This document shows positions 39,580 to 61,669 of a stretch of 64,000 nucleotides of DNA, piece after piece (positions within the stretch are counted from its first letter, which is position 1; every line of letters starts with the position of its first letter). Source of the stretch: a virus; IMG/VR virus record IMGVR_UViG_3300049460_000123, positions 29,509 through 93,508 of that record; one strand, given 5' to 3'. Under the pieces are notes generated by a model, which searched no databases, was not told where the DNA came from, and worked only from the letters and a program-made list of their open reading frames with translations. A program made the translations under genes and the position numbers.

Positions 39580-39672
39580 CAGACTAACAATGTTTTGAGA
39601 ACACCGCCGCCCGGCCCGCCCGGCGCGGCATCTGAAACGGTCCTGCCACGCGCGGGCGCACATAGGGCGCAA
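39578..39672 (+). repeat. Bipartite module-boundary element, copy 1
   Basis: AACAGAC-taaca-ATGTTTT; GGGCGC-acata-GGGCGCAA at offset 76. Confidence 0.8.
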
Positions 39673-39679
39673 TAGAGAC

Positions 39680-40105
39680 ATGCTGTTCGAGATCATCAAC
39701 CCAAGCGACAAATACACCATCGAGGCACCTGACCTCGAGATAGCCGCCCTCGCCGTTTGCGTACTGGGCGAAGGCAAGTATGCCCTGCAGGGAATCGACA
39801 ACACAAACGAGGTGCCTATTTTCCTGTTCGGCGGCCATGATGATTGGTTCAAGAAGAAATTTGGCCGATCGTTCGGCTACTCGCTCGAGCTCAGCGACAA
39901 GGCAAAGCTCGCGGACTGCCTGGATTCGACGCTGATCGGCGACGCCAATGACCGCAAGCAGTTCAACGCCGCGCGCACGGCCGTCTCGCCGGAAGTATTC
40001 GAGGGATGGCGCGCCGGATGGACTGGCGCACGCTGTAGCTCGCTTAACAACATCGGTCGCCGCGCCTACGCCTACGCCGAGGCACTTCGGGATCAACTCG
40101 CATGA
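39680..40105 (+). CDS. Hypothetical protein
   Basis: MLFEIINPSD.YT...SSLNNIG motif. Confidence 0.7.
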   Translation: MLFEIINPSDKYTIEAPDLEIAALAVCVLGEGKYALQGIDNTNEVPIFLFGGHDDWFKKKFGRSFGYSLELSDKAKLADCLDSTLIGDANDRKQFNAARTAVSPEVFEGWRAGWTGARCSSLNNIGRRAYAYAEALRDQLA

Positions 40106-40458
40106 GCAGATCCCTTTCCACCCAGGCACAACGCCAGCTTGGCAACTGGTTTCTGAACGGCGACACCGGCGTCTCGTCGGAGACGATGGCCGCGCTCGCA
40201 CTTGGCGCAACGAAGCGCGGCAACGGCCGCATGGATGCGCCGCACGATCCCGCCGACTTCGGCCGCTGCTACCGCCTGGTGAAAGCCGTTCCGGAGATCC
40301 GCGCACACTTCCCGCGCATCGGCCGCAAGTGCAAGACGTTCACCGGAATCCTGCACCACTGGGATGCGCTGGTGAAGATCTACGAGCGGGACAAGCCGAC
40401 AGGCGAGAGCCACGAGCTCTATCACCGCATCAAGGAACTGCGAGGCGATAAGGCATGA
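40102..40458 (+). CDS. Hypothetical protein
   Basis: W..NGDTGVSS...PHDPADFGRC motif. Confidence 0.7.
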   Translation: MSRSLSTQAQRQLGNWFLNGDTGVSSETMAALALGATKRGNGRMDAPHDPADFGRCYRLVKAVPEIRAHFPRIGRKCKTFTGILHHWDALVKIYERDKPTGESHELYHRIKELRGDKA

Positions 40459-40838
40459 AGACAGCAGAACTCGACGGCGTCCTGCTCGACTACTGGACGG
40501 CGCGCGCCGACGGTCGCACGGCCAAGATCGTACGGCCCGGCGAAAAGATCAATCGCATGATGGTCGACTGCGATACGTGCATCGCCCTCACACCGGGTTA
40601 TGCCAAATGGTGGCAACCGTTTCACGTGTACTGGGGCAGCGCCGGCCCGATCATCGAGCGCGAGAAAATCAGCATCGAGCGCATTGGCGACGACGCGACC
40701 GGCGATCGGACTGCATACGCATATACCATTGATGCGCCGCTTGACGGCCAACATGCAGACACTGCGCTGATCGCCGCGATGCGCGCATTCGTCAGCTCGA
40801 AATTCGGCGACGAAGTACCCGACGAGGTGCAATCGTGA
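40455..40838 (+). CDS. NinX-like (DUF2591) protein
   Basis: ELDG..LDYW.A.A...W..AGPIIERE.I...LIAAMRAFV.SK.GDEV. Confidence 0.75.
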   Translation: MKTAELDGVLLDYWTARADGRTAKIVRPGEKINRMMVDCDTCIALTPGYAKWWQPFHVYWGSAGPIIEREKISIERIGDDATGDRTAYAYTIDAPLDGQHADTALIAAMRAFVSSKFGDEVPDEVQS

Positions 40839-41017
40839 GCACGACCGTTTCAAAAATCGAATGGACAGACGTCGCGCTCGACGACGTCCTGCACCACTTC
40901 GCGAAAGACTTCACGTTCAAGGACGGCGCTAAACTCGTCCGCCATGAGGCATTCGTCGACACCGTCAAAGGACGTGTCGTGTTCAAACTGACGTCGCAGC
41001 CGCCGGAGGGAACGTAA
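40835..41017 (+). CDS. Hypothetical protein
   Basis: 60 aa, coupled overlaps on both sides. Confidence 0.55.
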   Translation: MSTTVSKIEWTDVALDDVLHHFAKDFTFKDGAKLVRHEAFVDTVKGRVVFKLTSQPPEGT

Positions 41018-41364
41018 TGCTGATGCCACCGGGCTTTGAACGCCTTCTGACCATCGATCCACATCCGGACTATGCCGCGCGCCGCGCCGAAGTAGGCACG
41101 CGCAATCTGTTCGCCGAGTTAGAGACCGTCCTTAACGCACGGTGCGTCGGGCACCCCATGACGCCGGAGATGATCGCCGACATGCAGGCGATCGTCGATC
41201 GAGCGCTCCTCGATGTGCGCAGTCTCGGCGAGACGCTCGTCAACGAAGACGGACGCGAGATCGTTGGCGTTCGGTTCTTCAAAGAGCCGGGATTCGGTCG
41301 TGTCGTCCTGGTGCCGCTGATTGGCGAGAGAGTCGGATTCTGGACTCCGCCAACACATACATAA
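41017..41364 (+). CDS. Hypothetical protein
   Basis: GGAGG SD; ends inside element copy 2. Confidence 0.55.
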   Translation: MLMPPGFERLLTIDPHPDYAARRAEVGTRNLFAELETVLNARCVGHPMTPEMIADMQAIVDRALLDVRSLGETLVNEDGREIVGVRFFKEPGFGRVVLVPLIGERVGFWTPPTHT

Positions 41365-41444
41365 TCTGATCGCAGTTTCCGCATCTCCATACGCCGCAGG
41401 GGTTTCCGACCTGCGGCGTTTTTCATGGGCGCTACTCGGACGCA
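41352..41444 (+). repeat. Bipartite module-boundary element, copy 2 (spacer contains a terminator)
   Basis: AACACAT-acata-ATCTGAT; GGGCGC-tactc-GGACGCA at offset 75. Confidence 0.7.
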
Positions 41445-41453
41445 CGCGAAATT

Positions 41454-41491
41454 TGCTCAAATTTGAGTTGTTTTTTAATCATTTTTGAGTA
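41454..41491. promoter_or_regulatory. Tandem early operators
   Basis: TGCTCA-aatt-TGAGTT and TAATCA-tttt-TGAGTA, starts 22 bp apart. Confidence 0.7.
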
Positions 41492-41527
41492 ATACTGCGT
41501 GCGCGTAACTTAACCCGAGAGAGAACC

Positions 41528-45755: not shown

Positions 45756-46009
45756 GGATCCATATCAGCTACGGCTCGGCGCGCAAGAAGCCGCACGTCG
45801 GCGATCGCCGGACCACGAAGAAGCACGGCGAGCAGATCCGAGTTTTCAGGATGGCCCGCGACACGCGCGGCAACATCATCGGTTACGACTGCACTGGCGG
45901 TAATCAGCGATATGACTGGGTGCCACTCGCCGACGCGGCGAAGCACCGCGCCGCGCACCATCTGACCGCTGAAGAACGCGCCGCGATAGACGGCAAGGAG
46001 GGGTCGTGA
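45752..46009 (+). CDS. Hypothetical protein
   Basis: ATGA coupling. Confidence 0.55.
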   Translation: MRIHISYGSARKKPHVGDRRTTKKHGEQIRVFRMARDTRGNIIGYDCTGGNQRYDWVPLADAAKHRAAHHLTAEERAAIDGKEGS

Positions 46010-46386
46010 CCGTCTACGTCGACGACATGAACGCCGCGTACGGCCGCATGAAGATGTGCCACATGCTTGCCGATTCCGACGAGGAGCTGCACGCGATGGC
46101 CGATCGGATCGGCGTCGCGCGGAAGTGGTGGCAAAGCCCTGCAAAAACGAGCGGCAGTCACTACGACATCGCGCTGAGCAAGAAGGCGCTCGCGATCGCC
46201 GCCGGCGCCGTCGAGATCACCTGGCGCCAGGCCGGCGCGATGAACACCCGGCGCCGCGTTACTGGCGAGCTTGGAGATCCGGCAGACGCGTGCGAATGGT
46301 CGCTCGCATTTTGGGCGAGGCGCCGGCGCGAGCGTGCGGAGGAGGCGGCGCGAGTCAACGGCCTATTCGTCGCGCCAACAGATTGA
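46006..46386 (+). CDS. DUF4031 protein
   Basis: MTVYVDD...MCHMLADS.EELH.MA..IG...W.Q...HYDI. Confidence 0.85.
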   Translation: MTVYVDDMNAAYGRMKMCHMLADSDEELHAMADRIGVARKWWQSPAKTSGSHYDIALSKKALAIAAGAVEITWRQAGAMNTRRRVTGELGDPADACEWSLAFWARRRRERAEEAARVNGLFVAPTD

Positions 46387-46471
46387 TCATCTTTTAGCAA
46401 TTTTACGGAACGCACCGCCCGGCGTGGCATTACCAAAAAATGATCGGGCCGCCGGGCGCAGGTAGGGCGCA
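46377..46471 (+). repeat. Bipartite module-boundary element, copy 3
   Basis: AACAGAT-tgatc-ATCTTTT; GGGCGC-aggta-GGGCGCA at offset 77. Confidence 0.8.
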
Positions 46472-46489
46472 CCGTCCAAACACACGCAT

Positions 46490-46520
46490 GTACATCGGTA
46501 CATAGGCACATAGGTACATA
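46490..46520. repeat. 8-bp GTACATAG-like tandem repeats (centromere-like, cluster 1)
   Basis: gtacatcg gtacatag gcacatag gtacata. Confidence 0.55.
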
Positions 46521-47257
46521 TGAACGAACATCCAATTCTTTTCAATCGCGAGATGATCCTCGCGCTGCACGCCGGCCGCAAGACGCAGACGCGCCGAATC
46601 GTGAATCCGGCCCCGATCGCCGATGATCGTTTTATTGGAGGCTACAAGATCGCCATGCCGAAAAGTCGGTACACGGGTATGCAGACGGGAGGCGAGATAT
46701 CTGTAGAAGCGGCATATGTCCACACATGCTGTCCGTACGGCTCTCCCGGCGATCGTCTATGGGTACGCGAAGCCTGGCGCGTCAGTCACAAGCACGACTA
46801 CCTTGCGCCGCGCGACCTGCCGTTCGAGCGCGGAATGACGATCATGTATGGCGCCGGCGGATCCCGTGCTCACAACGCCGCCGGCGAGTATGTCAACGAT
46901 CCGTGCTATCCGCTCACGCTACCCGCTTGGGCCGGGAAAGGCCGCCCGTCGATCCACATGCCGCGCGCCGCGTCGCGCACCACGCTCGAAATTACCGGAG
47001 TGCGCGTCGAACGACTGCAGGATATCAGCGAGGCGGACGCAGAGAAGGAAGGCGTGAATCGACTCGCGAACGGCTCGCCCTACTGGCGTAACTACGTAAC
47101 AAGCCGGCCCGACCACGGCACGTATGACTACACCTGCCTTAGCGCGCGCGAGTCGTTCTCGACGCTTTGGGATAGCATCAACGAGGCGCGTGGGTTCGGC
47201 TGGGAAACGAACCCCTGGCTTTGGGTGGTCGACTTCAGCTCGTACCGAGGTACATAG
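46520..47257 (+). CDS. ASCH/PUA-like phage protein
   Basis: PILFN..MI.AL..GRKTQTRR...GDRLWVRE...PSIHMPR.ASR..LEIT.VRVERLQDIS. Confidence 0.8.
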   Translation: MNEHPILFNREMILALHAGRKTQTRRIVNPAPIADDRFIGGYKIAMPKSRYTGMQTGGEISVEAAYVHTCCPYGSPGDRLWVREAWRVSHKHDYLAPRDLPFERGMTIMYGAGGSRAHNAAGEYVNDPCYPLTLPAWAGKGRPSIHMPRAASRTTLEITGVRVERLQDISEADAEKEGVNRLANGSPYWRNYVTSRPDHGTYDYTCLSARESFSTLWDSINEARGFGWETNPWLWVVDFSSYRGT

Positions 47258-47410
47258 GTACACAGGTACATAGGCACGCTCGTACATACCTGCACACACA
47301 CGTCCGTACCTGCACACACACGTGCATCCATAGGTGCGGACGTTTCTACGTGCGCGCGCACACACCTGCACACCCACAAACCGATGTATGATCCGACGCA
47401 CCTACATACG
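47242..47410. repeat. Centromere-like (parS/parH) repeats upstream of parA
   Basis: GTACATAG/GTACACAG tandems and ACCTGCACAC repeats, as expected for a type Ib partition site. Confidence 0.6.
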
Positions 47411-47419
47411 GAGGTGTCA

Positions 47420-48136
47420 ATGTCACGGATCATAACAATCGGCATGAAGAAAGGCGGACCCGGCAAGACGACGATCGCGACGAACATCGCGGCAATGTGC
47501 GTCACCGCCGGCATGAGGACGTTGCTGGTCGACACGGACGGGCAGCGCACGGCGGCGAGCTGGGCCGGATCCCGGCGAGAGCAGGGCGTCGAGCCGCCGA
47601 TTACCTGCGTCGAAAAGACGGGTAAATGCGGCCGCGATATCGCCGAGCTCGCCGACAATTACGACGTCGTCATCGTCGACGCCGGCGGCCACGACAGCAT
47701 AGAGCTCCGCCAGGCGTTCGCCGTCGCGGACCTATGCATCATGCCGCTTCGGCCATGCCAGCCGGACGTCTGGACTCTGCCGGACATGATCGAGCTGATC
47801 AACGAGATCGAGGAAAAATCCGGCACGCGCCCGCGCGCATCCGTGCTGATCAATGGCAAGGAAGCGCCGCGCAAGGTGAGGGGAGGGTACCGCGAGACCC
47901 AGGACACGCGCGACACCGTCGACTCGATCCGCGAGACATTCGGCGACGCCGTTCCCGTCCTTGGATCGATGGTTTCCTATCGCCCGGCATTCTGGCGCGC
48001 GTTCCCCGCCGGAATGAGCGTCGTCGAGTTGCCCGATTCGGCCCGCGCCGAGAGCGCCAAGGAAGAACTGATGAACCTTTTCAAGGAGATTTTCGATGTC
48101 GAATACTCGACCGTCGATCAGCGTCGCGCAGCCTAA
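47420..48136 (+). CDS. parA: ParA partition ATPase (type Ib)
   Basis: Deviant Walker A KGGPGKTT, LVDTDGQ, YDVVIVDAGG; GGAGG SD before ATG 47420. Confidence 0.92.
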   Translation: MSRIITIGMKKGGPGKTTIATNIAAMCVTAGMRTLLVDTDGQRTAASWAGSRREQGVEPPITCVEKTGKCGRDIAELADNYDVVIVDAGGHDSIELRQAFAVADLCIMPLRPCQPDVWTLPDMIELINEIEEKSGTRPRASVLINGKEAPRKVRGGYRETQDTRDTVDSIRETFGDAVPVLGSMVSYRPAFWRAFPAGMSVVELPDSARAESAKEELMNLFKEIFDVEYSTVDQRRAA

Positions 48137-48461
48137 GACACTTTCCGCCGAGGAGCGCGCGGCCCGCCTCGATAAGGTATCAGCATGGAGTGAAGCGCCG
48201 GCACGCGAGGCACTGGGCGAGAGTAGGGCGCCCGCCGATCAGAAACCGCCGCCAGCGCCCGCGCGCGAGGAGCATAGGCACATGGTAGCCGCGCCGGCCG
48301 CGACGCCGCCAAAATCGATGCACGTGCGTATGCCGATCGATACCTACGAGATGCTCCGCGATATCGCGCACGTGACGCGTGAGCACATGAACGACATCAT
48401 CGCTCGAGCGACGCTGAAGGAATGCCGCCGGATCCGCGAGGCGCTCGAGAAAGGGAAGTAG
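48096..48461 (+). CDS. Ribbon-helix-helix centromere-binding protein (ParG-like)
   Basis: Disordered N-terminus plus KSMHVRMPIDTYEMLRDIA...MNDII; AAGGAG SD. Confidence 0.75.
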   Translation: MSNTRPSISVAQPKTLSAEERAARLDKVSAWSEAPAREALGESRAPADQKPPPAPAREEHRHMVAAPAATPPKSMHVRMPIDTYEMLRDIAHVTREHMNDIIARATLKECRRIREALEKGK

Positions 48462-48490
48462 GGCGGGCAGACCGCCACCTTGCAAAACCG

Positions 48491-48819
48491 AATTGGGAGG
48501 ATTCCCGGGTTGATCTGCGCGAGGGTTTTCCACAAGACTCTCGCGCGTAGTTTGTAGACGTTTGTTAACCGTTTGTATACGTCTCAGACCCTTACCAGGC
48601 GTGGCTTTGCGGGACGCTATTGGGAGGAAAGCCGGGTCAATTGGGAGGCGGACCGGGCCAATTGGGAGGGCGGCCGGGTTCCAATTGGGAGAAAAGCCGG
48701 TTCATCTCGTGTTGTCCACAGCTCGCACCCGGAAATCCTCCCAGTGACACCGATCGACAGGGGATGATAAATTGTTCCCTCCCAGTCGGCCCGCGTTTAA
48801 CCCGGAAATCCTCCCATAT
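48491..48819. repeat. Plasmid origin: iterons, DnaA-like boxes, AT-rich repeats
   Basis: Direct iterons WATTGGGAGR-N4/5-CCGG at 48491, 48618, 48639, 48660, 48683; inverted copies at 48727 and 48799; TTTTCCACA 48526, TTGTCCACA 48712; GTTTGT x3. Confidence 0.88.
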
Positions 48820-49558
48820 GAAACTCAAATATGCGCAGACAGGCTTGAACCTGGTCGACCGGCACGTGACGATGCACAACGACTTGCTTGTGGCGTCGCA
48901 CGGACTGAAGACGCTCGCCGAGCAACGCATCGTGAAGTCGTGCGCAGCAAAGATCGATTCGGTGCGCCTAGACGGCAACCGGTACCGCGTCCGACTGACT
49001 GCACAGGAATACGCCGAGACTTTCAACCTCGACACGACGACGGCATACGAGCAACTGAAGTCCGGTTGCGAGTCGTTGGCCGAGCGCTGGATTGTCTGGT
49101 CCGAGCCAGTGCAGCGCGGCGCCGTAGCCGTCCACCGCGACCGCTGGGTGAGCGGCGCAACGTATGTCGACAAAGCCGGCTGGATCGAGCTCAGATTCTC
49201 GCCGGAGGCGACACCGTATCTCATGGTCCTGCGCGGCAACCACACGACCTACCTGCTACGCCAGGCGGCCGAGCTGCGATCGATCTACTCATGGCGGATG
49301 CTCGAGCTCCTGATGCAGTTCAAAGACACTGGATGGCGCCAGATGCAGATCAAGGACTTCCTGCATGCGATGGACGCGAAACCGAGCCACCTGCAGAACT
49401 TCAAAGACGCCCGCCGGCAGATTATCGAAGTTGCCGTGAAGGAATTGCAGGACAAAGACGGATGGATCATCACGTGGACGCCGATCAAGACCGGCCGGAA
49501 GGTTACTGATATCCGGTTTGAATTCAGCCGGAACCCGCAAGGCACGCTCGCGCTATGA
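48818..49558 (+). CDS. repA: Plasmid replication initiator (Rep_3 family)
   Basis: N.L..ASH.L.TLAEQRI...AY..LK...LRSIYSWRMLELLMQFK..G..AV.EL...K.GRKV..I.F. Confidence 0.9.
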   Translation: MKLKYAQTGLNLVDRHVTMHNDLLVASHGLKTLAEQRIVKSCAAKIDSVRLDGNRYRVRLTAQEYAETFNLDTTTAYEQLKSGCESLAERWIVWSEPVQRGAVAVHRDRWVSGATYVDKAGWIELRFSPEATPYLMVLRGNHTTYLLRQAAELRSIYSWRMLELLMQFKDTGWRQMQIKDFLHAMDAKPSHLQNFKDARRQIIEVAVKELQDKDGWIITWTPIKTGRKVTDIRFEFSRNPQGTLAL

Positions 49559-49620
49559 GAAACGCAACTACCCGTCCAATTCGCCACCGCGCCGCAGGCT
49601 GATAGTTAGTTGCGTTTTCG

Positions 49621-49648
49621 AGGGGTGATAACTTTTATTATGTCAAAT
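49621..49648 (+). other. Xer (dif-like) dimer resolution site
   Basis: AGGGGTGATAA-CTTTTA-TTATGTCAAAT, 11-6-11 layout with a good XerD arm. Confidence 0.8.
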
Positions 49649-49659
49649 CTGGAATTCAG

Positions 49660-49708
49660 TGTTGGCATAGTTGACAACGCGCGCTGCATGTTGGCATAAT
49701 TGCCAGCA
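49660..49708 (+). promoter_or_regulatory. TA promoter with two palindromic operators
   Basis: TTGACA(49671)-18-CATAAT; GTTGGCATAGTTGACAAC and TGTTGGCATAATTGCCAGCA; ATG 7 nt after the -10. Confidence 0.75.
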
Positions 49709-49995
49709 TGAAAGCCATCCTCATCGACAAGTCACGCAGCGCAATCGACGCAGTGTCGTTCGCGAACACTGTGATCTGGCAGGTGCCAGAGCCCGTGCTG
49801 GGCAGCGCACACCACTTCAAATATAGCCTTTCGTACATCGTTCGCGGCGACTGCGTTCTGCGATACGACAACGAGCGCGGCAAAGGTGATCATCGGCACT
49901 GGCTCGACGAGGAAACCGCCTACAACTTCGCTTCGCTTGAGCAACTGCTCCGCGACTTTTATTCGGATATCAGTACCTGGAGGGCATCAAAATGA
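49708..49995 (+). CDS. DUF6516-family putative toxin
   Basis: IWQVPEPV.GS.H.FKYSL...LRYDNERGKGDHRH. Confidence 0.85.
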   Translation: MKAILIDKSRSAIDAVSFANTVIWQVPEPVLGSAHHFKYSLSYIVRGDCVLRYDNERGKGDHRHWLDEETAYNFASLEQLLRDFYSDISTWRASK

Positions 49996-50348
49996 ACAAG
50001 GTGACAATCAGCGTTGAGTCACGCGATGCAGCGATCGCGCGCATCGTGGCCGCCGCCAACAGCGGCAAGGAGGCGCAGACCGCACACATCACGTTTGACA
50101 CGCCGGAGGCACTGTTTGGCACGTTCACGCAGATGCGCATTCAGATCGTCCGCGAGATGACAGGCAGCGGCCCGATGTCGATCCGCGAGTTGGCCCGGCG
50201 AGTCGGGCGCGATGTGAAGCGTGTGCACGAGGACGTACACGCCCTTTTGAATGTCGGCGTGCTCGATCGCACGGAAAGCGGCGCGATCGAATTCCCGTAT
50301 GACGCGGTGCACTTCGATTTTTCCTTTGACGGCCAAAAGGCAGCGTGA
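49992..50348 (+). CDS. HTH antitoxin/regulator (HVO_A0114-like)
   Basis: SIRELARRVGRDVKRVHEDV..L...G...FPYD. Confidence 0.85.
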   Translation: MNKVTISVESRDAAIARIVAAANSGKEAQTAHITFDTPEALFGTFTQMRIQIVREMTGSGPMSIRELARRVGRDVKRVHEDVHALLNVGVLDRTESGAIEFPYDAVHFDFSFDGQKAA

Positions 50349-50350
50349 TC

Positions 50351-50524
50351 ATGAGCGACTTTCACACCTGGGCAGCGGCAGTGTCGCGTGAACTGGCGAA
50401 TCTCGGCACCCCACTTCTCGACGCCAAACAGGTGCCGTACGACAACGAGGACTGGTTTCGCCGGGAGTTTGACGCCGGCGAAAGCCCCGTACTGACAGCG
50501 GCAGACTGGCACGCCGCGCAGTGA
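50351..50524 (+). CDS. 57-aa hypothetical protein
   Basis: MSDFHTWAAAVSREL...WFRREFDAGESP...; hand-translated. Confidence 0.55.
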   Translation: MSDFHTWAAAVSRELANLGTPLLDAKQVPYDNEDWFRREFDAGESPVLTAADWHAAQ

Positions 50525-50532: not shown

Positions 50533-50627
50533 AACAGATCATAGATCTGTCGCGTCTATCGCCAAAAGCAAAGCCCGGCAAGCGTCTCCGCTGTCGGGCT
50601 TTTTTCATGGGCGCGCATAGGGCGCAA
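50533..50627 (+). repeat. Bipartite module-boundary element, copy 4 (spacer contains a terminator)
   Basis: AACAGAT-catag-ATCTGTC; GGGCGC-gcata-GGGCGCAA at offset 76. Confidence 0.8.
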
Positions 50628-50787: not shown

Positions 50788-50838
50788 TAATTATTTTTGA
50801 TCAATGCGTTGATCTTTTTTGATCAAGTGCGGTATGAT
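50788..50838 (+). promoter_or_regulatory. Promoter of the ncRNA locus with two operators
   Basis: TTGATC-18-TATGAT; operators at 50788 and 50810. Confidence 0.7.
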
Positions 50839-50844
50839 TCGTTC

Positions 50845-51350: not shown

Positions 51351-51356
51351 CCGCGC

Positions 51357-51575
51357 TACGGCGCACCAAACCGGCCACAAGATAGGGTGGACGCTGGAAC
51401 TCGTAACCAGCACCGTCATAACGGAGCCTGTGCCAATGTCGTGCGCACGAATATTTTGGCGTCGATTCGGGTTCCGTTGTGAGGGTTAAAGCGCGGGCTG
51501 GGATATACCGGCCGCCCTCGAAGTGGAAAGCCCCGGTACACAAGCCGGCGAGCTGGTGCAGAGCCAGCACCTTCA
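51357..51575 (+). ncRNA. Two degenerate tRNA-like units
   Basis: Both end in GCTGG-loop-CCAGC-ACC[GT]TCA, a T-arm-like stem plus acceptor strand. Confidence 0.45.
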
Positions 51576-51650
51576 AGTGTGTCGACTCGGAGAACCGTCA
51601 CGTAGCGCTGCGCGCGCCTGCGAGACATACGTCAGTCTGAGTCGACACGC

Positions 51651-51782
51651 TTGAAGGTGACGAAATTGGTAGACGTAGGTGGTTAGGGCAATGCGACGCA
51701 TTGGGCAAACGAGGCGCCAGAGCTCGGAGCCATAAAACCTAAAGCCGCCGGCCATTGCGGGTTCGAGTCCCGCCCTTCTCCG
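51651..51782 (+). ncRNA. tRNA-Leu-like element with a 62-nt anticodon loop
   Basis: D arm GACGAAATTGGTAGACGT; T arm GCGGG-TTCGAGT-CCCGC; GGTGG/CCGCC stem; only 5-bp acceptor stem. Confidence 0.65.
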
Positions 51783-51816
51783 AAAGGTCTCTCGCATACT
51801 CCCCGTATTGCGATTC

Positions 51817-51844
51817 AGGGCGCCCTAACCGGCGCCCTTTTTTT
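51817..51844 (+). terminator. Intrinsic terminator of the RNA locus
   Basis: AGGGCGCC-ctaacc-GGCGCCCT-TTTTTT. Confidence 0.85.
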
Positions 51845-51846
51845 CG

Positions 51847-52185
51847 TCAAGCGATCACGCCGGCGGCGATAGCCGACCACAGTACTTTGCACGCGAAGTG
51901 GATCGCCTGATCCGTCCGCAGACCGATCCGATTGTCACACTTGAGAAAGTCCGTCACCGCATGGACGATCGCCTCCGCCACGCCGAGCACGATCGAGCCC
52001 GTGAACAGCGCGACGAACCCGGCATGCACCATCGAATGCGCGAACAGCGCGTGAGGCCAAAAGATCTTTCCGAGTGGCGTGTTTCGGTTCTTACCATTGG
52101 CGAGAAAATCGCCCTGAAGCGGGTAGTCGGCGAGCGAATGGCCGACAACGAGCCAGAACAGGATCGTGAGGAACGCGACGGTCAT
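51847..52185 (-). CDS. DUF3307 membrane protein
   Basis: GHSLADYPLQ...HS.VH...HAVTD..K...DQAIH. Confidence 0.85.
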   Translation of the reverse strand: MTVAFLTILFWLVVGHSLADYPLQGDFLANGKNRNTPLGKIFWPHALFAHSMVHAGFVALFTGSIVLGVAEAIVHAVTDFLKCDNRIGLRTDQAIHFACKVLWSAIAAGVIA

Positions 52186-53133: not shown

Positions 53134-53176
53134 GCGCTCATTTTCGCGTCACGACGCGCGGCGCCAGAATGCCGCT

Positions 53177-53272
53177 AACAGACTCGAAGTGTGTTGCAGG
53201 CACGCCGCAAACCAGCGCCCAGCATAACGGCGCCGTGCTGGCCGCCGCGCGCCGGGCGCTGATCGGGCGCAA
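53177..53272 (+). repeat. Bipartite module-boundary element, copy 5
   Basis: AACAGAC-tcgaa-GTGTGTT; GGGCGC-tgatc-GGGCGCAA at offset 77. Confidence 0.85.
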
Positions 53273-55387
53273 TTAGTTGTAGTAAAGCGGAACGAGCGCC
53301 ACCGCATCCGCGACGACATACCCAGTCGTCCCCGTGTTGCCCACAACCACCTTATTGTTCGCCGGATCGTTCGCCGTGAATGCATAGGTTCCGATCAGCT
53401 TCCATGCGCCGGAGTTGATCTGGTTGACGTTCACCGCCGCCTGCGCGACGCCGGCCGCCGTCACCGTATGCGGAACTGCACCCGAGCGCGTCGAGCTCTC
53501 CGGAAAGAACGCATAGGCGCCATACGTGCCGGCCTTGGCGAGCGCGAAACGAAACTCTACCGAGCACGTCCCTTTGTTCGTCGCATTGTCCGACAGGTAA
53601 GTCGGCCCGTAGATCGACGACTCTGCAAACGTGCTGAGTGTCTGCACCTCTTGCCATGCGCCCGCGACGACTATCTGTCCATTGCCGGCGGCATCGACAT
53701 ACGTGCCTACAACGTTGCCGCCCGGCGGAATGTCGAGCACGGCCGCGCCAGGCGGGAAATAACCCATGCTTTCCCGGATCTTGTACGGATCGACCGCCTG
53801 CACCGTCGACGCGAGATCGATCGCGCGGGCAGCGGCGAAGCCTGCAATCTCGCCGAGCTGCATGGCGATCGGCTCGACGCGGATCGATGCGAACGCGGCA
53901 TGCGACGCCGACACCGCGAAAGTGACGAGCAGGTTCGTGCACTCAGTCACTTTCGGGCACAGCGCCCTATAGCTGATCCAGTACCGACCATCCTGGCCGC
54001 CGCTCGCTGTCTTCTGGAAGAACCCGCCCTCGAGCGCGATGAATCCGTTGTAGACGACCGTTTGGCAATGGTGCGAGTCCATCGCATAGAAGCCGATCGC
54101 GACGCCGTCCGTTACCGGATCGATGCGCTGGCAATGACGATCGGTCATGACAAAATCGCCGATCATGCGGCGTCCCTCTCGCACGTAGAGCTGCTTGGGC
54201 AGTCCGTGCCGAGTCTGCATCTGCAGATATGGCGGAAGGCCGAACCCGGCAAGCGTCGTCTTGATCGCGGCCGGCACGCGCGAGTCTTCGCGCAGGAACT
54301 TGAACAGGCCCAGCGTCCAGTCGACGTGCTGCTGATAAATCGCCTCGCGTTCAGCATACGTCGCAGTCGGCCATGCGTCGGCGCCGCCGATAAAGTCGAG
54401 CTGCTGCAGCGCTGAGCCCGCATTCAGATCGGTCACGCCGTCTTTGCACAGGTGATCGTTAAACAGGCCCGGCGGATTGGAGTTGTCACTCCATGCCGTG
54501 ATCTGACCCGCCGCGAACTGACGACCCAGGATCTCGTAATTGAGCGCGCTATAGTGCGTCGGCTCCGGGAATCGGCGGAAGGTGCCCGGGCCGCCGCTCG
54601 TCGAAACCACGTTGACGCGGAACCCGTACGCCTGGACGCGATCGTCGCCGGTTCCGACGGCCGCGACCGTTGCATTCACACCCGGCAGCAGGCCGGACGA
54701 CGGAACGGCCGCCGTGATATACGGATCCACCTGCCACGCGCCGGCCTTGTTGTAGGGAGTGACGACGCCGTTATAGGTCTCGTTGTACTGACTGTTCGGC
54801 TCGCGTCCGACCGCGAACGAGCAGCCGGCGGCCGCCATAAGATCGCCCTCATAGCTTGCATCGATGTACACCTTCGCCGTCACCGTCAATTGCGGCGCGA
54901 CCAGCGGCGTCAATGAATCCTCGAACGTCACCGCGCTAATCTCCGCGCCGGATTTCTTCACGGCAGACGGGATAACGCGGTAGTTATTGCGGACCGTGAT
55001 CCGGTTCGTCGACAGCAGTGCCGTGAGCTGGGCAACCATCGCTTTAGGCGACGCGTTCAGACTTTGCCCCCAAAACGTCGGGTAGTCCGTCACGCTGGCG
55101 GAATAGTTCGAGCTCCATATCGCCCGGTAGAGCGCATTGGCGAGCCCCTTCACGACGTTGCAGTCGCCGCCAGCTCGATCGGTGTAACTCAGGCCGCCTT
55201 GTGCCGGCATGCCGCCGAAAATCGTATCCGGATTGATCAGCTCGACCGTCTTTCCGTTCTGCGCGGCCGATATCGCCGCCAGTATCCCGCTGCACGTCGC
55301 GCCATAGACGCAGACGTCAACATTGCTCGTCGCATAGAGCGAATCGGCCTGGTGCCGAGCCAATCCCGGCGCGTCAAGAATTCCCAT
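53273..55387 (-). CDS. FAD-dependent oxidoreductase with C-terminal golvesin/xanthan-lyase-CBM-like domain
   Basis: DVCVYGATCSG..AA..AA..G, YIDASYEGDLMAAAG...GRE, YVREGRRMIG, MDSH, SASHAAFASIRVEP; C-terminal W..IGTY.F...VVADAV. Start trimmed to MGILDAPG. Confidence 0.85.
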   Translation of the reverse strand: MGILDAPGLARHQADSLYATSNVDVCVYGATCSGILAAISAAQNGKTVELINPDTIFGGMPAQGGLSYTDRAGGDCNVVKGLANALYRAIWSSNYSASVTDYPTFWGQSLNASPKAMVAQLTALLSTNRITVRNNYRVIPSAVKKSGAEISAVTFEDSLTPLVAPQLTVTAKVYIDASYEGDLMAAAGCSFAVGREPNSQYNETYNGVVTPYNKAGAWQVDPYITAAVPSSGLLPGVNATVAAVGTGDDRVQAYGFRVNVVSTSGGPGTFRRFPEPTHYSALNYEILGRQFAAGQITAWSDNSNPPGLFNDHLCKDGVTDLNAGSALQQLDFIGGADAWPTATYAEREAIYQQHVDWTLGLFKFLREDSRVPAAIKTTLAGFGLPPYLQMQTRHGLPKQLYVREGRRMIGDFVMTDRHCQRIDPVTDGVAIGFYAMDSHHCQTVVYNGFIALEGGFFQKTASGGQDGRYWISYRALCPKVTECTNLLVTFAVSASHAAFASIRVEPIAMQLGEIAGFAAARAIDLASTVQAVDPYKIRESMGYFPPGAAVLDIPPGGNVVGTYVDAAGNGQIVVAGAWQEVQTLSTFAESSIYGPTYLSDNATNKGTCSVEFRFALAKAGTYGAYAFFPESSTRSGAVPHTVTAAGVAQAAVNVNQINSGAWKLIGTYAFTANDPANNKVVVGNTGTTGYVVADAVALVPLYYN

Positions 55388-55395
55388 TTTGTTCC

Positions 55396-55782
55396 TTATA
55401 CGATGGTGATAGCGGGCTGCGCAGTCACCGCGCCGTTGACGTCGCGCGTAACCGCGAGTTGCGTGAGAGTTTTTGCGGGCGGCCCGGCATACGTCGCATG
55501 CCATGCGTTGATCGCACCGCTCGCAGGGTCTTGCGCATCCGTGACGTAGGTGCCGGGCGTCCCATCCGGCCAAACGATGCTTGCGGACAAAAGCACGCCG
55601 TTCGCGTCGCGCGTGCCCGAAACGAGTTGCCCGAAGTTGCCGGCGTACGCCCAGCCGAGAAGCGCCTGAACGATGTTCCCGACCGGCGAGAATTTGCGGA
55701 TCTCATCGAGCGCTTCGTTAGCCCTTGCGGCCGCCGCGAACGCTTGAGCTAACGAGCTCTGACTGATATCAAGTGTGGTCAT
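55396..55782 (-). CDS. Putative virion adaptor protein
   Basis: TRDANG....A.IVWPDG.PG.Y...TQ.AVTRD.NGAV motif; late promoter. Confidence 0.6.
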   Translation of the reverse strand: MTTLDISQSSLAQAFAAAARANEALDEIRKFSPVGNIVQALLGWAYAGNFGQLVSGTRDANGVLLSASIVWPDGTPGTYVTDAQDPASGAINAWHATYAGPPAKTLTQLAVTRDVNGAVTAQPAITIV

Positions 55783-55826
55783 GCGCAACCTTTCGTAGTG
55801 GTTACTGAATGGTCACGTCACGACTC

Positions 55827-55920
55827 AACAGACAAGAAGTCTGTTAGCAGAATGTCCGAATAGCCCTAGATATAAGGCTGCGCACGACACAGCGGAATGT
55901 GCCGGGCGCAGCTTGGGCGC
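55827..55920 (+). repeat. Bipartite module-boundary element, copy 6
   Basis: Perfect arms AACAGAC-aagaa-GTCTGTT; GGGCGC-agctt-GGGCGC at offset 77. Confidence 0.85.
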
Positions 55921-57962
55921 TAGTAAGACCGCTCGACGAACAAGATGCAGCCGGGCGATGCCGCGCGCGTGAGCATGCCGCGCTCCTCGCAGTTGCCCGT
56001 GTCTGCATCGAACGACACACAGCGGCCGCACCGCTCGCCATCCGGCAGCGCCTCGAATATCTGCGCGACCGCCGGCGGCATGCCGACCTGTTTCGCCACC
56101 TCGACGAGATCCTTGTGCGGGTTTGCTTCCGGCATGATGAATGTGCTTGTCCCGTGAGCGCGCGACCAGGCCACGTCGCAAAGCATGTTTGCATACGAAA
56201 AGTGCGGATCGATACCGACCTTCTTGACCGACCGCTTGTACGCGTTGGTCTCCTCGTCTTTCTCCGCAACCAGCGCCGTCTTCGTGAAGTGGTGGAACGC
56301 GCGCGGCAGCACGGCGGCCGTCTTCATCACGCCCTTGTCCATCACCTCCTGAATGAGCCCCTGCGGATCCGGAAACAGGCACGTCGCCGAGGTAATGCGC
56401 GCCATCGACACCTGCATGCACTTGTACTGATCCATGCGCAGCGTGTAGCGATCGCGCGCCTCCTCGTCGGTCCGCCGCTCCGACACGTCGAGCTTGGGCG
56501 CGTCGCCCCACTGGATCATCCCCTCCTTGACCGAGCCGAAGCTATCGCAGATGAACACCCGGCCCGGATGCCGCGTCGCGAATTTCTTCGCGTCGTTGTA
56601 GTTCGGGTTGATTTCAACCACGCATACGTCGACGCCGTACAGATCCATGAGCTCAGACGAGCGCGCGAACGGATCCGCGCCATAGGTCTCCTCGACGTGA
56701 ATCGTCGCCTGACGGCCGTCCGGCATACGCTCCTTGATCACGTGCACGTTGAAGTTACCCATTTGGTCAATACCCATGTAGGTATGACGCGCGCGCGACT
56801 TCCATACGACGCCGGCTTTTTTGCCCTCCTCGACGCAGTTCGCGCAGTGCTCGAGCGTCACCGGCACCTGCGATGGATCGAGGTATGGCTTGCCGAGCTT
56901 CCGGTTGAAAAAGTTTTTCATGTCCGTCGCCGAGTTGAACGCGTCCATGATTTCGCCGGCCGCGATCGTTGGCGAGAGGAATTGGGGAAAGTGAATCGAG
57001 CGGATCCGCAGCGGCCGCTCCTTCTTCTCGATCGTGTAGTCGATCGGCTTGTCGGCCGCCGGGTTGTCCGCGATCCACTCGCCGCGCTGCGTATCGGTGA
57101 TCCAGTGCCCATTGCGGCACACGTACCGATAGCGCTCCTTCTCCGAGTCCCACTTGATGCAGTTCGGCCAGTACGAGTCGAGCGGCGCGCGATCGGCGCA
57201 CGTCGGGCATTCCGTATGGAACTGGTATTGCGATCCGCGTTTGTACCAGTAATGGATGTCAGCATCCGGCCAGTTCGCCGTCGAGCCCATCAGCGTGAAA
57301 CGCACTGGCGACGCAGACAGACGCTCGATCGTCTTTTCCATCTGCTCGAGCGTCATCTCCTGTACCTCGTCGAACGACAAAATGTCCATTGGGACAGATT
57401 CAGTCGTCGCGCGTCCGGACGTCCACGAAAAGATGAACAGCGCCTCAGCAATCCGGCGCCGGTTGACGTTGCCCTCGCCCGTCTTACGGCCAGAGCCGTC
57501 GGCCGCGTCCTGCGTCATGAGCTCGTGCACGGACGGCACCGAGCGCACGATCGGCATGAATCGTTCTGTCGACTTCAGACCGGCCAGGTTCATATCCGGC
57601 AGGAACATGCCGACCGTCGCCGGGCCGAAGCGGATCCCGAGATAGATCGTCGCCAACATCTCCATCACCGTGAAACCCACCTGCGCGCACTTCATCAGGA
57701 CGAGCACCAAGCGATAGGCCTCGTCTTCCGTGCTGGGCACCTGGTCATAGATCCATGCCATCGCCGGACGGTCGTCGAGCTGGAACGGTTTGCCGTCGAC
57801 CTTCAGGCCATCGCGCCCGAGCTGCAGGCACCATTCCTTGAACGTCACGCCTTCGGCGATCTTGGTTTTCTCGATCCGGAATCCAGTCTTCGCCTCGAGG
57901 CGCGCGATCAGGCCCGCCAGCGAAGGGAGCCCATCCCGCTTTGACATTCTCGATCGCGCCAT
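55920..57962 (-). CDS. terL: Terminase large subunit (GpA-like)
   Basis: MKCAQVGFT, ILSFDEVQEM, MGST, YMGIDQMG, DPHFSYAN. Confidence 0.9.
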   Translation of the reverse strand: MARSRMSKRDGLPSLAGLIARLEAKTGFRIEKTKIAEGVTFKEWCLQLGRDGLKVDGKPFQLDDRPAMAWIYDQVPSTEDEAYRLVLVLMKCAQVGFTVMEMLATIYLGIRFGPATVGMFLPDMNLAGLKSTERFMPIVRSVPSVHELMTQDAADGSGRKTGEGNVNRRRIAEALFIFSWTSGRATTESVPMDILSFDEVQEMTLEQMEKTIERLSASPVRFTLMGSTANWPDADIHYWYKRGSQYQFHTECPTCADRAPLDSYWPNCIKWDSEKERYRYVCRNGHWITDTQRGEWIADNPAADKPIDYTIEKKERPLRIRSIHFPQFLSPTIAAGEIMDAFNSATDMKNFFNRKLGKPYLDPSQVPVTLEHCANCVEEGKKAGVVWKSRARHTYMGIDQMGNFNVHVIKERMPDGRQATIHVEETYGADPFARSSELMDLYGVDVCVVEINPNYNDAKKFATRHPGRVFICDSFGSVKEGMIQWGDAPKLDVSERRTDEEARDRYTLRMDQYKCMQVSMARITSATCLFPDPQGLIQEVMDKGVMKTAAVLPRAFHHFTKTALVAEKDEETNAYKRSVKKVGIDPHFSYANMLCDVAWSRAHGTSTFIMPEANPHKDLVEVAKQVGMPPAVAQIFEALPDGERCGRCVSFDADTGNCEERGMLTRAASPGCILFVERSY

Positions 57963-58697: not shown

Positions 58698-58779
58698 TGC
58701 GCCCGAGTAGCGCCCTATGGCGGAAAACTGACGCGGAACCCTTGTCAGGCTTGGTCCCGCATCAGATCCCTAATCTGTT
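58698..58779 (-). repeat. Bipartite module-boundary element, copy 7 (short spacer)
   Basis: Minus strand AACAGAT-taggg-ATCTGAT; GGGCGC-tactc-GGGCGCA at offset 64. Confidence 0.75.
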
Positions 58780-58981
58780 AGACCAAAAGATGCGCCTTGA
58801 CCACTTCGGCCGCATGCATCGGATTGATGCTGCACGACACGACACGCTGTGCGCCGAGGATTACGTTTTCCGCCTGCTTCAGAACCATCTGCGCCTCGCC
58901 GACCGTCAGGCCGTCCAGCACATTGATCACGTCCACCGCATGCGCGGCGATCTTTCCGACTTCGTCAGTCTTGAACATCAC
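58778..58981 (-). CDS. Hypothetical protein
   Basis: GGAG SD; TAA overlaps element copy 7. Confidence 0.55.
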   Translation of the reverse strand: MMFKTDEVGKIAAHAVDVINVLDGLTVGEAQMVLKQAENVILGAQRVVSCSINPMHAAEVVKAHLLV

Positions 58982-59732: not shown

Positions 59733-60022
59733 GGCGCCACCGATGCGGCGAGATCGTAGGCCGAGCCGATCGGCGCAACCAGCAGCGCGCCATCCTCGCC
59801 GAGCAGCGGCGCGGGCACCGGGCGGACTGCGTCGCCGTAAAGGCCCCCGGGCGGGATCAGCGTGTTGCCCTTGATCTCGAAATCGACCGTCATGCCGGCC
59901 CGGTTCGTCGGGTGGATGTAGAAACGCACGCTGCCGTCGGAAACGGACGCGCGCAGCGAAAAGTCGATTGCGCCGCTATTCGCGAGCTCGTCGCGCAGGT
60001 ATTGCTCGAGGGTTTGACTCAT
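59729..60022 (-). CDS. Hypothetical protein
   Basis: IDFSLRA...FYIHP....G.T.DF...GN.L; GGAG SD. Confidence 0.65.
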   Translation of the reverse strand: MSQTLEQYLRDELANSGAIDFSLRASVSDGSVRFYIHPTNRAGMTVDFEIKGNTLIPPGGLYGDAVRPVPAPLLGEDGALLVAPIGSAYDLAASVAP

Positions 60023-60558
60023 GGGTTCTCCGTTGCCGGCCGATCGTTGGCCGCCTTGACCATCTGCTTTAAACTCCCGTGCCAAGCGCCATAGCGCTCG
60101 ACTTCGGAAACGAATGCGACGACGTCGTGCTCGACCAGGCCATAGACCGGCAGACCGTCGCGATCGAACTTCGGTGCGTCATACGCGTCTTTCTCTTGCT
60201 TGATATGCGCCAGCTCGTGCCACAGCAGCGCCTCGCGCTCGTGCTCGCTGGCGCCTTTCCAGAACTCGTGATCCAGGGTGATGATGAAACGCGGCATTGC
60301 GCCGAAGAACGACCGGAGGAGCATCTCGAACAGGTCTTTCAGGTGCCCTTGCACCTTTGGCTCGTGCACCATGCCGAGGATCTGCTTGCCGCCCTTGAGC
60401 TTGACCTCAGTCTTGAACAGGTACTCGATATGCACCTCGTTCTCTTTCAGGTGCTTGTGCTCGTCCTGCAGCATGTGCCGCTCAGCGATGATCGCCGGAT
60501 GCAACTCCCCTTCCGGGACGAGGTACGGCTCGAAATATTCGATGTCGCTCATCGGCAC
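60019..60558 (-). CDS. Putative phage metallopeptidase
   Basis: ALLWHELAH...HDV..F...V.RYG.W; start could be 60552. Confidence 0.8.
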   Translation of the reverse strand: MPMSDIEYFEPYLVPEGELHPAIIAERHMLQDEHKHLKENEVHIEYLFKTEVKLKGGKQILGMVHEPKVQGHLKDLFEMLLRSFFGAMPRFIITLDHEFWKGASEHEREALLWHELAHIKQEKDAYDAPKFDRDGLPVYGLVEHDVVAFVSEVERYGAWHGSLKQMVKAANDRPATENP

Positions 60559-60653
60559 GCCATCCGGCCGTATGCGTAGATCGCGCCGAGCACGAACGAG
60601 ACAACGGCGGCCGCTTGGACCGCAGCGATCAACCAGTCGAATAATTTGCCCAT
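60549..60653 (-). CDS. 34-aa membrane peptide
   Basis: GGAGG SD after the late promoter at 60687. Confidence 0.45.
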   Translation of the reverse strand: MGKLFDWLIAAVQAAAVVSFVLGAIYAYGRMACR

Positions 60654-60687
60654 TGCCTGCACCTCCGCTATGCAGGCAATGATCACG

Positions 60688-61050
60688 TCACGACCGCATG
60701 CCGACATCCCAATCTGTCGCCGCCTCGAGATCCTCGAGGGAGGCTTGCCGCAGTGAGACGACCGGCGACTTGCCGTAGACCGCTTTCCACGCGAGCTCGA
60801 ACGCATCCAGATCGCCCGGCGCATTCGCCACCATCGGCGCGACAATGGGCCGCCGGTTCCGTATGCACTCGCGCACCTCCGACAGGCCGCGATAGTGCCG
60901 GCCGCTTGCGAAAGCCTCGAGGTGATCGAGCGCCGTGCATACATCCGGAAACTCCGCCATCCAGCGCCGGACTTGTCTGCACTCGACACGCCAGCGCTCG
61001 AGCTCCGCCACCTCGCGCCCGGCCACGAGACGCCGCAGCCAGCCGATCAT
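60688..61050 (-). CDS. Hypothetical protein
   Basis: WLRRLVAGRE..EL.RW...WMAEF. Confidence 0.55.
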   Translation of the reverse strand: MIGWLRRLVAGREVAELERWRVECRQVRRWMAEFPDVCTALDHLEAFASGRHYRGLSEVRECIRNRRPIVAPMVANAPGDLDAFELAWKAVYGKSPVVSLRQASLEDLEAATDWDVGMRS

Positions 61051-61177
61051 GCCGGCCGCCGCTTGACGTACACCTCGACCGGCCCGAGCTCGATCACAGC
61101 CTGCCCGCGCGGCGCGCGCCAGATCCCGAAGCGCCAGCACGACAGGTCGCACCAGACGAGTTTGAGAGTGCGGCCCT

Positions 61178-61558
61178 TCATGCCGGCACCGCCGCGCTAC
61201 TGACTGACAGGCAGTCCGCCTTGATCCGCACCGTTCCGTCGGTCAAGATCATCACCTCCGCGCCGGTTGCGGCGATCGTCGGCGCCGACGCGGCGCGCAG
61301 GTGATCGATTTCCATCTTGAGCGCGCCCTGCGTCATCTGGAGGATTTGGATCTCGAAGGATTTGCGCGCTAACTCAGCCTCGAGCGCGGCCGCGCGTTGC
61401 GCCGGCTCGCTTGCCCGCCCTTCTGCACAGCGCAGGAGTTCGCGCACAGTGTCTGCCTCCGCGACTGCCTCACGCAGCACATCGCGGCGGACGATCAACA
61501 TCGTATGCAACGGCTCATTGTCGAGGTGCGCGCGGATATGCTCGATTGCTTGACCCAT
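61178..61558 (-). CDS. Hypothetical coiled-coil protein
   Basis: AAGGGAG SD directly after element copy 8. Confidence 0.6.
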   Translation of the reverse strand: MGQAIEHIRAHLDNEPLHTMLIVRRDVLREAVAEADTVRELLRCAEGRASEPAQRAAALEAELARKSFEIQILQMTQGALKMEIDHLRAASAPTIAATGAEVMILTDGTVRIKADCLSVSSAAVPA

Positions 61559-61575
61559 CTGAAATCTCCCTTACA

Positions 61576-61669
61576 TGCGCCCGATCAGCGCCCGGCGACG
61601 GCGTGAAACTCAGGAAACCCGCTCCACGTATGGGCGCGCGGGGAATGTGAAACAGATCTACTGTCTGTT
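61576..61669 (-). repeat. Bipartite module-boundary element, copy 8
   Basis: Minus strand AACAGAC-agtag-ATCTGTT; GGGCGC-tgatc-GGGCGCA at offset 76. Confidence 0.85.

Follow-up and report, generated by a model that had tools for sequence, protein, structure and literature searches.

The window analysed here, a 64,000-nucleotide stretch of viral DNA, comprises bases 29509-93508 of the 93,508-bp IMG/VR record IMGVR_UViG_3300049460_000123 (G000), which is taken to be a circular assembly because it carries a 127-bp terminal repeat. G000 is a temperate contractile-tailed phage (myovirus) with a G+C content of about 61%, and in DNA its terminase gene shares 76-77% identity with the terminase genes of Dolphis and Jeremy, 93.5-kb Pseudomonas putida phages. 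Public phage collections held similar DNA at the terminase gene only, and in public plasmid collections no similar DNA was matched. The region of interest contains small early and accessory genes, a ParA/Rep3 plasmid module, a FAD-oxidoreductase cargo, the terminase and a PAPS-reductase gene, and it is punctuated by short composite elements, each made of an inverted repeat (IR) and a direct repeat (DR), which are the subject of this report. Elements of the same type are present in Paraburkholderia and Caballeronia genomes, which places the host among such bacteria; G000 is classed as a Paraburkholderia phage. The one tyrosine recombinase of G000, Int1, is encoded just outside the window, at genome 23631-24803. 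Comparisons were made mainly with the closest complete relative (contigs G001:C20 and C170), whose Int1 is 86% identical, with L010, a contig 94-99% identical to the window, and with X1-X5, rhizosphere metagenome runs holding the G000 phage. The elements, lettered by slot, and the two main cargoes lie as follows:

39579..39671, plus strand: element A, IR ACAGAC-TAACA-ATGTTT (39579-39595), 58-nt spacer, DR GGGCGC-ACATA-GGGCGCA (39654-39671)
41353..41444, plus strand: element B, IR ACACAT-ACATA-ATCTGA, terminator hairpin with a run of T, DR GGGCGC-TACTC-GGACGCA (one mismatch)
46378..46471, plus strand: element C, IR ACAGAT-TGATC-ATCTTT, DR GGGCGC-AGGTA-GGGCGCA
46520..50524, plus strand: cargo of slot C-D, with a phrog_874 gene, ParA (47384-48136), a gene of 121 amino acids, the Rep3 initiator (48620-49558) and three small genes
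50534..50626, plus strand: element D, perfect IR ACAGAT-CATAG-ATCTGT, strong terminator hairpin, DR GGGCGC-GCATA-GGGCGCA
53178..53271, plus strand: element E, IR ACAGAC-TCGAA-GTGTGT, DR GGGCGC-TGATC-GGGCGCA
53273..55573, minus strand: cargo of slot E-F, a cellular-type FAD-dependent oxidoreductase / Golvesin_C gene
55828..55921, plus strand: element F, perfect IR ACAGAC-AAGAA-GTCTGT, DR GGGCGC-AGCTT-GGGCGCT (one mismatch)
58698..58778, minus strand: element H, IR ACAGAT-TAGGG-ATCTGA (58778-58762), 46-nt spacer with a terminator hairpin, DR GGGCGC-TACTC-GGGCGCA (58715-58698)
61576..61668, minus strand: element G, perfect IR ACAGAC-AGTAG-ATCTGT (61668-61652), DR GGGCGC-TGATC-GGGCGCA (61593-61576)

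The IRs had been marked in an earlier note as eight boundary sites with conserved arms around unlike five-base centres. All eight were recovered, as ACAGAY-N5-RTCTGT at window 39579, 41353, 46378, 50534, 53178, 55828, 58762(-) and 61652(-), and the listed centres TAACA, ACATA, TGATC, CATAG, TCGAA, AAGAA, TAGGG and AGTAG were found to be exact. A search for this pattern with up to two mismatches returned 17 matches against 4.5±2.2 in shuffled sequence, eight of the 17 being these sites, and a ninth site, with centre TCAAG, lies outside the window at genome 644-660(-). The IR is only the first half of a composite of about 93 bp, in which AACAGAY-N5-RTCTGT is followed by a spacer of about 58 bp and then by the DR, YCGGGCGC-NNNTM-GGGCGCA. 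In fact, all nine sites precede GGGCGC-N5-GGGCGCA, with 74-76 nt from IR start to DR start (63 nt at one site), and the perfect DR occurs in seven copies in the genome while the reversed-pattern control occurs in none. Across the family, a strict IR with a 5-bp stem was found 72-76 nt upstream of 32 of the 75 distinct DR copies, at exactly 75 nt in 19 instances, and essentially never in a control window placed further upstream of the family DRs.

From Pseudomonas phages to those of Paraburkholderia, purifying selection clearly acts on the DR arms, the left IR arm and the 75-nt spacing. In the six slots with alignable spacers, per-site change amounted to 2.4% in the left arm, 5.0% in the centre, 16% in the right arm and 15% in the spacer; in the same slots the DR arms changed by 0-2.4% and the DR centre by 24%. 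The claim that the arms are conserved therefore holds for the left arm, (T/C)NAACAGAY, with 2-5% change between orthologues, but not for the right arm, which is degenerate (RTSTGW) and changes at 16-23%, like neutral spacer. The DR centres are not all distinct, TGATC and TACTC each being used twice.

Seven of the nine elements are co-directional with the upstream gene. In four of these seven a TAA stop ends on the first base of the IR (TAACAGA), including those of the genes at 39211-39579 (element A), 58778-58981 (element H) and 61668-62093 (element G), and in two more the stop lies inside the IR. At element B it is that of the gene at 41017-41364, and at element C the TGA of the DUF4031 gene (46006-46386) falls in the centre. 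The next start codon follows 8-23 nt beyond the DR end at three elements, with an ATG 8 nt past the DR of element A and another 17 nt past that of element G. The element thus fills the gap between two genes: the first gene stops within or at the IR, and the ribosome-binding site of the second comes just past the DR. Elements E and F are inverted relative to local genes: the DR of element E, which runs against surrounding minus-strand genes, abuts the FAD-oxidoreductase stop, and the DR of element F overlaps the terminase stop codon. In many relatives, too, a DR sits inverted just past the terminase gene. Terminator-like hairpins occur in about half of the spacers, strong ones with runs of T being those of elements B, D and H and of many relatives; over the spacers as a whole the mean folding z is only -1.4, and several values are near 0. 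A loose CCYT..AGGSTT motif, which the earlier note had seen in several spacers, was found in only one or two of the nine.

The elements coincide with the ends of homology. Against the closest relative, homology blocks end at window 39563, 39682, 41348, 50529, 50630, 53196, 58717 and 61671, and all eight of these ends fall within a few nucleotides (16 at most) of an IR or DR edge. Element A is an isolated 120-bp homology island in G001:C20 and element D an island of 102 bp (50529-50630), both flanks being replaced in each case. At element B the homology of the relative begins at 41348; at element E it stops at 53196, the spacer and DR travelling with the cargo, which in the relative is a different one of about 6 kb; at element H it stops at 58717, the DR edge. 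In L010 another module has taken the place of the one upstream of element G, and homology sets in exactly at TAACAGAC. Furthermore, contigs of metagenome run X2 start or overlap at the IRs of element D (50531), element E (53154-53183) and element F (55826-55854). Depth in X2 is about 20 over the slot C-D cargo and about 75 to the right of the element D IR, and this fourfold step means that the X2 population is polymorphic for that cargo. At the IR of element E one X2 contig ends after the left arm and before the centre and the next begins 30 nt earlier, which is read as an assembly branch just before the centre.

In slot C-D, the plasmid-maintenance module of G000 (window 46520-50524, ParA/Rep3) stands against L146 1341-3788 plus L110 4187-4706 in the relative, L146 being contig C170. 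The slot of the relative holds a second integrase, a xis-like gene and a tRNA-Val(TAC) attachment site, and the difference looks like a swap of prophage lifestyle modules between two conserved borders. The sites are real, they are part of a conserved composite element, and they mark true module borders.

Int1 combines an Arm-DNA-bind_3 domain (PF13356) with a generic Phage_integrase domain and retains the catalytic R..HxxR..H..Y residues; no serine recombinase was found in the genome. The 18-bp DR motif is unchanged in Pseudomonas phage Dolphis, which has eight copies, and in many uncultured IMG/VR relatives, the terminases of which are only 51-78% identical in protein to that of G000. A 95-kb prophage contig of a Paraburkholderia assembly carries six perfect DRs, against three in the other 8.1 Mb, and the DR is a phage motif, not a host motif. 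Among 22 near-complete relatives, DR and PF13356 integrase occurred together in eight, DR alone in one, the integrase alone in two and neither in 11, counts that are not corrected for phylogeny. Directly beside int in Dolphis and in the relatives G020 and G005 lies a tRNA fragment with DRs flanking it; the fragment is either tRNA-Gly(CCC) or the part of tRNA-Arg(ACG) that starts at the anticodon loop. Arm-type sites flanking a tRNA fragment beside int are the textbook layout of an attP. Two further relatives fit alongside, G016 with a DR pair right beside int and G007 with DRs by a complete tRNA-Leu gene, also beside int. The integrases form two subfamilies in which the arm domain is 55-60% identical while the core-binding and catalytic domains share about 20%, and the IR likewise differs between phages, reading ACAGA..TCTGT in G000 and CCTGA..TCAGG in Dolphis and G004. 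A conserved arm domain with the rest divergent is what is expected if the arm domain reads the invariant GGGCGC and the rest reads phage-specific cores. The tyrosine-recombinase connection drawn in the earlier note is well supported indirectly, by the co-occurrence, by the DRs beside int and by the arm-domain conservation, and the DR behaves as a putative arm-type site of Int1, a P4-type integrase.

Written as 5+7+5, AACAGA-[Y-N5-R]-TCTGTT, the IR has the dimensions of a tRNA anticodon arm. The anticodon-centred crossover is the commonest class among tRNA-targeting integrases, with the loop as overlap and the stems as core half-sites (PMC4383910, citing Williams 2002). Leaving aside the 86%-identical relative, G020 has the integrase that most resembles Int1, and the G020 attP reads CTACGAA and then TCTGG (anticodon loop and 3' stem of tRNA-Arg ACG). 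This TCTGG shares four of five positions with the right half-site TCTGT of G000, and by complementarity the 5' stem of the G020 attP would be CCAGA. From its geometry and this resemblance, the IR may be a core-type site. A host tRNA arm of the form ACAGA..TCTGT or CAGA-YTACGAA-TCTG had no match in the host assembly of the relative, which is incomplete.

Int1 is without an attachment site of its own: neither in G000 nor in the 86%-identical relative, which was the only source of close Int1 homologues in the genome collection, does a DR or tRNA fragment lie next to it. The relative is a prophage integrated in tRNA-Val(TAC), with a second, unrelated integrase and an excisionase-like gene right beside the tRNA, and at its other prophage end a canonical site for integration host factor (IHF) lies beside the tRNA-Val attachment core. 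It appears to integrate via this second integrase. Int1 and the nine orphan elements thus persist without serving chromosomal integration, which argues for a function of their own.

The explanation preferred here, with a probability of about one half, is that the elements are attL-type docking platforms for Int1 that define module borders; integrase-type elements at module borders are judged likely. Int1, a heterobivalent (P4-type) tyrosine integrase, would dock on the ~93-bp composites; the IR, mimicking a tRNA anticodon arm, would offer two 5-bp core-type half-sites around a 7-bp overlap, and the GGGCGC pair, phased by 11 bp and beginning 75 nt past the IR start, would present arm-type sites to the N-terminal domain of Int1, the overall layout being that of a small attL. 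The elements would serve as points of module exchange between related phages, and the centres, as the overlap positions of core-like sites, would differ by chance, with nothing forcing the nine to be alike. This proposal draws on the composite anatomy and its conservation, on the association of the DR with Int1 and on the coincidence with mosaic junctions; it would have Int1 bind the IR and catalyse exchange there.

Several observations weigh against docking and exchange by Int1. The right half-site is weak and evolves neutrally. The geometry also departs from that of true attP sites in relatives: there, about 131-143 nt separate the core from the start of the P' arm DR, against about 67 nt from the core centre here. 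The bending-protein site that the earlier note had supposed in the spacers is not seen, the IHF consensus WATCAANNNNTTR being present between IR and DR in none of the nine, even at one mismatch. Some half of the junctions are found at the DR, a place at which integrases make no cut, and where single genes have been replaced within slot A-B, the junctions are plain gene boundaries that carry no IR. Finally, the co-occurrence of the DR with the integrase comes from counts uncorrected for phylogeny.

A less probable alternative is a regulatory or insulating border: a terminator between two protein-binding sites, for Int1 or another phage protein, at which binding blocks or tunes read-through between operons and no integrase exchange is involved, junctions arising there as the elements are the sole short sequence common to unrelated modules and as whole modules are selected. 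The strong hairpins with runs of T described above speak for it, as do the reach of the element from stop codon to next ribosome-binding site, the co-directionality of seven of the nine with the upstream gene, and the junctions at the DR and at ordinary gene boundaries. Precedents exist for both of its parts. IntS and TorI control the intS promoter at attL of prophage KplE1, integrase arm- and core-type sites thus serving in transcriptional repression (PMC2951348), and PeSL cassettes of T4-type phages, short intergenic units with a terminator stem-loop, are regulatory repeats that act as substrates of modular shuffling and mark the junctions of insertions, deletions and replacements among close relatives (PMC2839356). 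However, not every spacer folds as a terminator, given the modest mean z, and two elements are inverted relative to local genes. No sigma-70 promoter lies inside the element; a scan for sigma-70 promoters and terminators found nothing consistent inside the elements and no promoter-like site in any. A roadblock would need neither a stop on IR base 1 in four of seven cases nor slot-specific conservation of the centres, and 8-bp microhomology is poor for general recombination.

A rather improbable extension of the Int1 proposal is a true address code, in which selection keeps the 7-bp overlaps of the slots unique within a genome and identical among exchange partners, Int1 swapping like for like between co-resident relatives and never deleting within one genome. 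All support for Int1 sites applies equally to it. The earlier note had taken the distinctness of the centres as its evidence, and this argument fails, since eight random 5-mers are all distinct with a probability of 0.93-0.97 and the mean mutual Hamming distance of the centres is 3.44 against 3.48 expected at random, with no excess of dissimilarity. What the code predicts for orthologous centres was partly found. In close relatives the same slot usually has the same centre, the centres changing by 5% and the spacers by 15%, a comparison resting on small numbers in six slots with p of about 0.03-0.14 by treatment; between G000 and its closest relative there is one change in 40 nt of centres when the replaced slot H is left out. 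Slots C, D, E and F retain their centres next to sequence that is unrelated on at least one side. TGATC and CATAG persist in slots C and D whether they enclose the plasmid module, as in one phage, or the integration module, as in the other; TGATC of slot C occurs in three phages, each with a non-homologous spacer, element D has four left flanks in four genomes with the centre CATAG three times and CCTAG once, and AAGAA of slot F is shared by G000, L010 and the relative. Furthermore, right-arm variants follow the right flank in slots C and E, while left arm and centre follow the left flank.

Somewhat more distant relatives show other centres at the same slot. The slot H centre is TAGGG in G000 but TGCAA in the relative, that of slot E is TCGAA in G000 but ACAAA in a Caballeronia prophage, and with the further variants of metagenome contigs slot G shows AGTAG, AGTAA and TCCAG and slot I TCAAG, TAGTA and TAATA. 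At the DUF4031 slot and at the one downstream of the terminase, the centres of still more distant relatives bear no relation to those here. Some centres are coding, and those of slots B and C contain a stop codon. The junctions at the DR and at gene boundaries require a further mechanism, as a crossover at the IR centre does not explain those at the DR; the X2 contig break comes after the left arm of the element E IR, ahead of its centre; and selection for evolvability alone is a weak force. The pattern in close relatives matches the prediction of the code, yet it does not go beyond descent with weak constraint and it has exceptions. The address code is neither refuted nor established; it is a plausible idea, weakly supported.

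Under docking by Int1, some of what the code promises would come without it. Lambda-type integrases require overlap identity, to which IntDOT is an exception (PMC2817482). Within the genome no overlap has a partner with an identical centre, all nine centres being different, and because overlap identity is needed, Int1 would be unable to delete or invert between the sites of one genome, an incidental effect; pairing of the same slot between two relatives would remain possible. The fullest version would be an exchange system that is integron-like yet mechanistically distinct, in which an orphan Int1 recombines slot-specific mini attL-like sites at every module border with 7-bp overlaps as like-for-like addresses, carried by ~90-kb temperate myoviruses of Pseudomonas, Paraburkholderia and related bacteria and effecting, for example, the swap of an integration for a ParA/Rep module; taken as a whole, this is doubtful.

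Two further explanations have very little standing. That the elements are inert scars, decaying attL/attR-type junctions from past insertions of small cassettes with no present function, could appeal to elements E and F, direct repeats flanking the FAD-oxidoreductase cargo and the most similar IR pair (14/17, with overlaps CTCGAAG and CAAGAAG sharing five of seven positions), and to the spacer and DR of element E moving with the cargo, but it is at odds with the clear purifying selection on DR arms, left arm and spacing and with an Int1 that is intact and conserved without an attP. A structured RNA (IR plus hairpin as a 3'-UTR element) or an unusual promoter, of sigma-54 or phage-RNA-polymerase type, is equally remote: the DR can be read as a GG-N10-GC spacing, NNNTA-GGG recalls T7-type promoter initiation sites and hairpins are frequent, but the arms of the element A IR cannot pair, right-arm drift is uncompensated, Rfam finds nothing at the elements, the genome is without a T7-type polymerase, sigma-70-family factor or sigma-54 activator, and the host chromosome does not use the motif. 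The DR was rejected as a sigma-54 promoter on the absence of a T-rich -12 region, of a phage sigma-54 activator and of the motif in the host chromosome, and the IR was rejected as an RNA hairpin because pairing is not kept. Since Shine-Dalgarno sequences directly follow the DR, the mRNA must start upstream of them.

Among known systems, the architecture is nearest to a lambda-type attL, and the genomic role is nearest to that of integron attC sites and PeSL cassettes. As in lambda attL, two direct repeats phased by 11 bp come after an IR whose centre measures 7 bp, and they lie at about +67 and +78 from the core centre, close to P'2 and P'3 of lambda; Int1 has a separate arm-binding domain (PF13356), and in relatives the repeats flank tRNA-derived cores by int. 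Unlike lambda attL, the elements occur in nine copies per genome, none of them next to int or with a tRNA fragment, they have neither a P arm nor an IHF consensus, the spacer is often a terminator hairpin, and no partner site in the genome has the same overlap. They are thus not true att sites, since both the IHF site and the partner overlap are lacking. The likeness to integrons lies in a recombinase-type site at each cassette border, an upstream open reading frame that often ends in or at the site, variable and partly cellular cargo, and a tyrosine recombinase encoded elsewhere on the element. However, Int1 is of P4 type with an arm-binding domain and is not an IntI, an attI or Pc platform is absent, the elements as a whole are not palindromic, unlike attC (R''-L''...L'-R' imperfect palindromes of 57-141 bp, folded as single strands), and the slots hold multi-gene modules that include essential ones such as the terminase; with no IntI and no attC structure, this is not an integron.

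With PeSL cassettes the elements share module shuffling at short conserved intergenic sequences. PeSLs, in contrast, are shuffled through general recombination of near-identical copies and contain a strong sigma-70 promoter. The elements here differ from PeSLs in that no promoter was found, and what their copies have in common is limited to about 8 and about 15 conserved bases; these conserved parts look like integrase sites. KplE1 differs in having a single true attL over one promoter, against nine orphan sites between unrelated operons. The sfx sites of the R64 shufflon, acted on by Rci, are likewise asymmetric and many per replicon, with one arm well conserved and one poorly. Shufflon sites share a 7-bp spacer and so recombine with one another to give inversions; here the spacers all differ, which would prevent inversions between sites. 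In open-access text no publication on such scattered integrase-type sites was found.

Phage mosaicism has long been debated between random illegitimate recombination followed by selection and dedicated linker sequences. In G000 a conserved integrase-type composite site stands within a few bases of many junctions, including that of the swap between integration and plasmid lifestyles, and the matching integrase lacks its own attachment site. Action of Int1 at these sites would make them a dedicated site-specific system for modular phage evolution, and a natural set of orthogonal recombination sites as well; binding alone would amount to a new way of using an integrase in regulation.

Several observations were made beside these. 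A 22-bp perfect inverted repeat, 53250-53271 / 61576-61597, consists of the DRs of elements E and G (both with centre TGATC) plus four bases and brackets the 8.3-kb terminase segment; among the joints listed from four metagenome runs there was none for an inversion at these positions. In the Dolphis record (L008 40130-40600), a tRNA-Arg(ACG) 3' half lies amid at least nine GGGCGC half-sites in both orientations, an int-proximal arm-site array far denser than its two perfect DRs suggest. A late-promoter core, GTCGTGAC, is found on the minus strand at window 53148-53155 and 55812-55822, directly beside the IRs of elements E and F. In slot C-D, arrays of a GGTACATA-type 8-bp repeat at window 46485-46549 and 47237-47377 flank the phrog_874 gene just upstream of parA and probably form the centromere of a type-Ib partition system. 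Just past element D, in a stretch of about 1.3 kb poor in open reading frames (50627-51897), the Proteo-phage-1 RNA (RF03044) was matched at window 51089-51166(+) with 53.8 bits against a gathering score of 42, the only match of the Rfam scan and away from the elements. Finally, operator-like palindromes (CTCAAATTTGAG, TTACTCA-N5-TGAGTAA) adjoin a conserved promoter-like motif, TTTGAGTAATAY, at window 41452-41500, at genome 24850-24890, at L146 2070-2125 and at 79610-79650 of the Dolphis record, and they are probably immunity repressor operators at early promoters, separate from the IR/DR elements.

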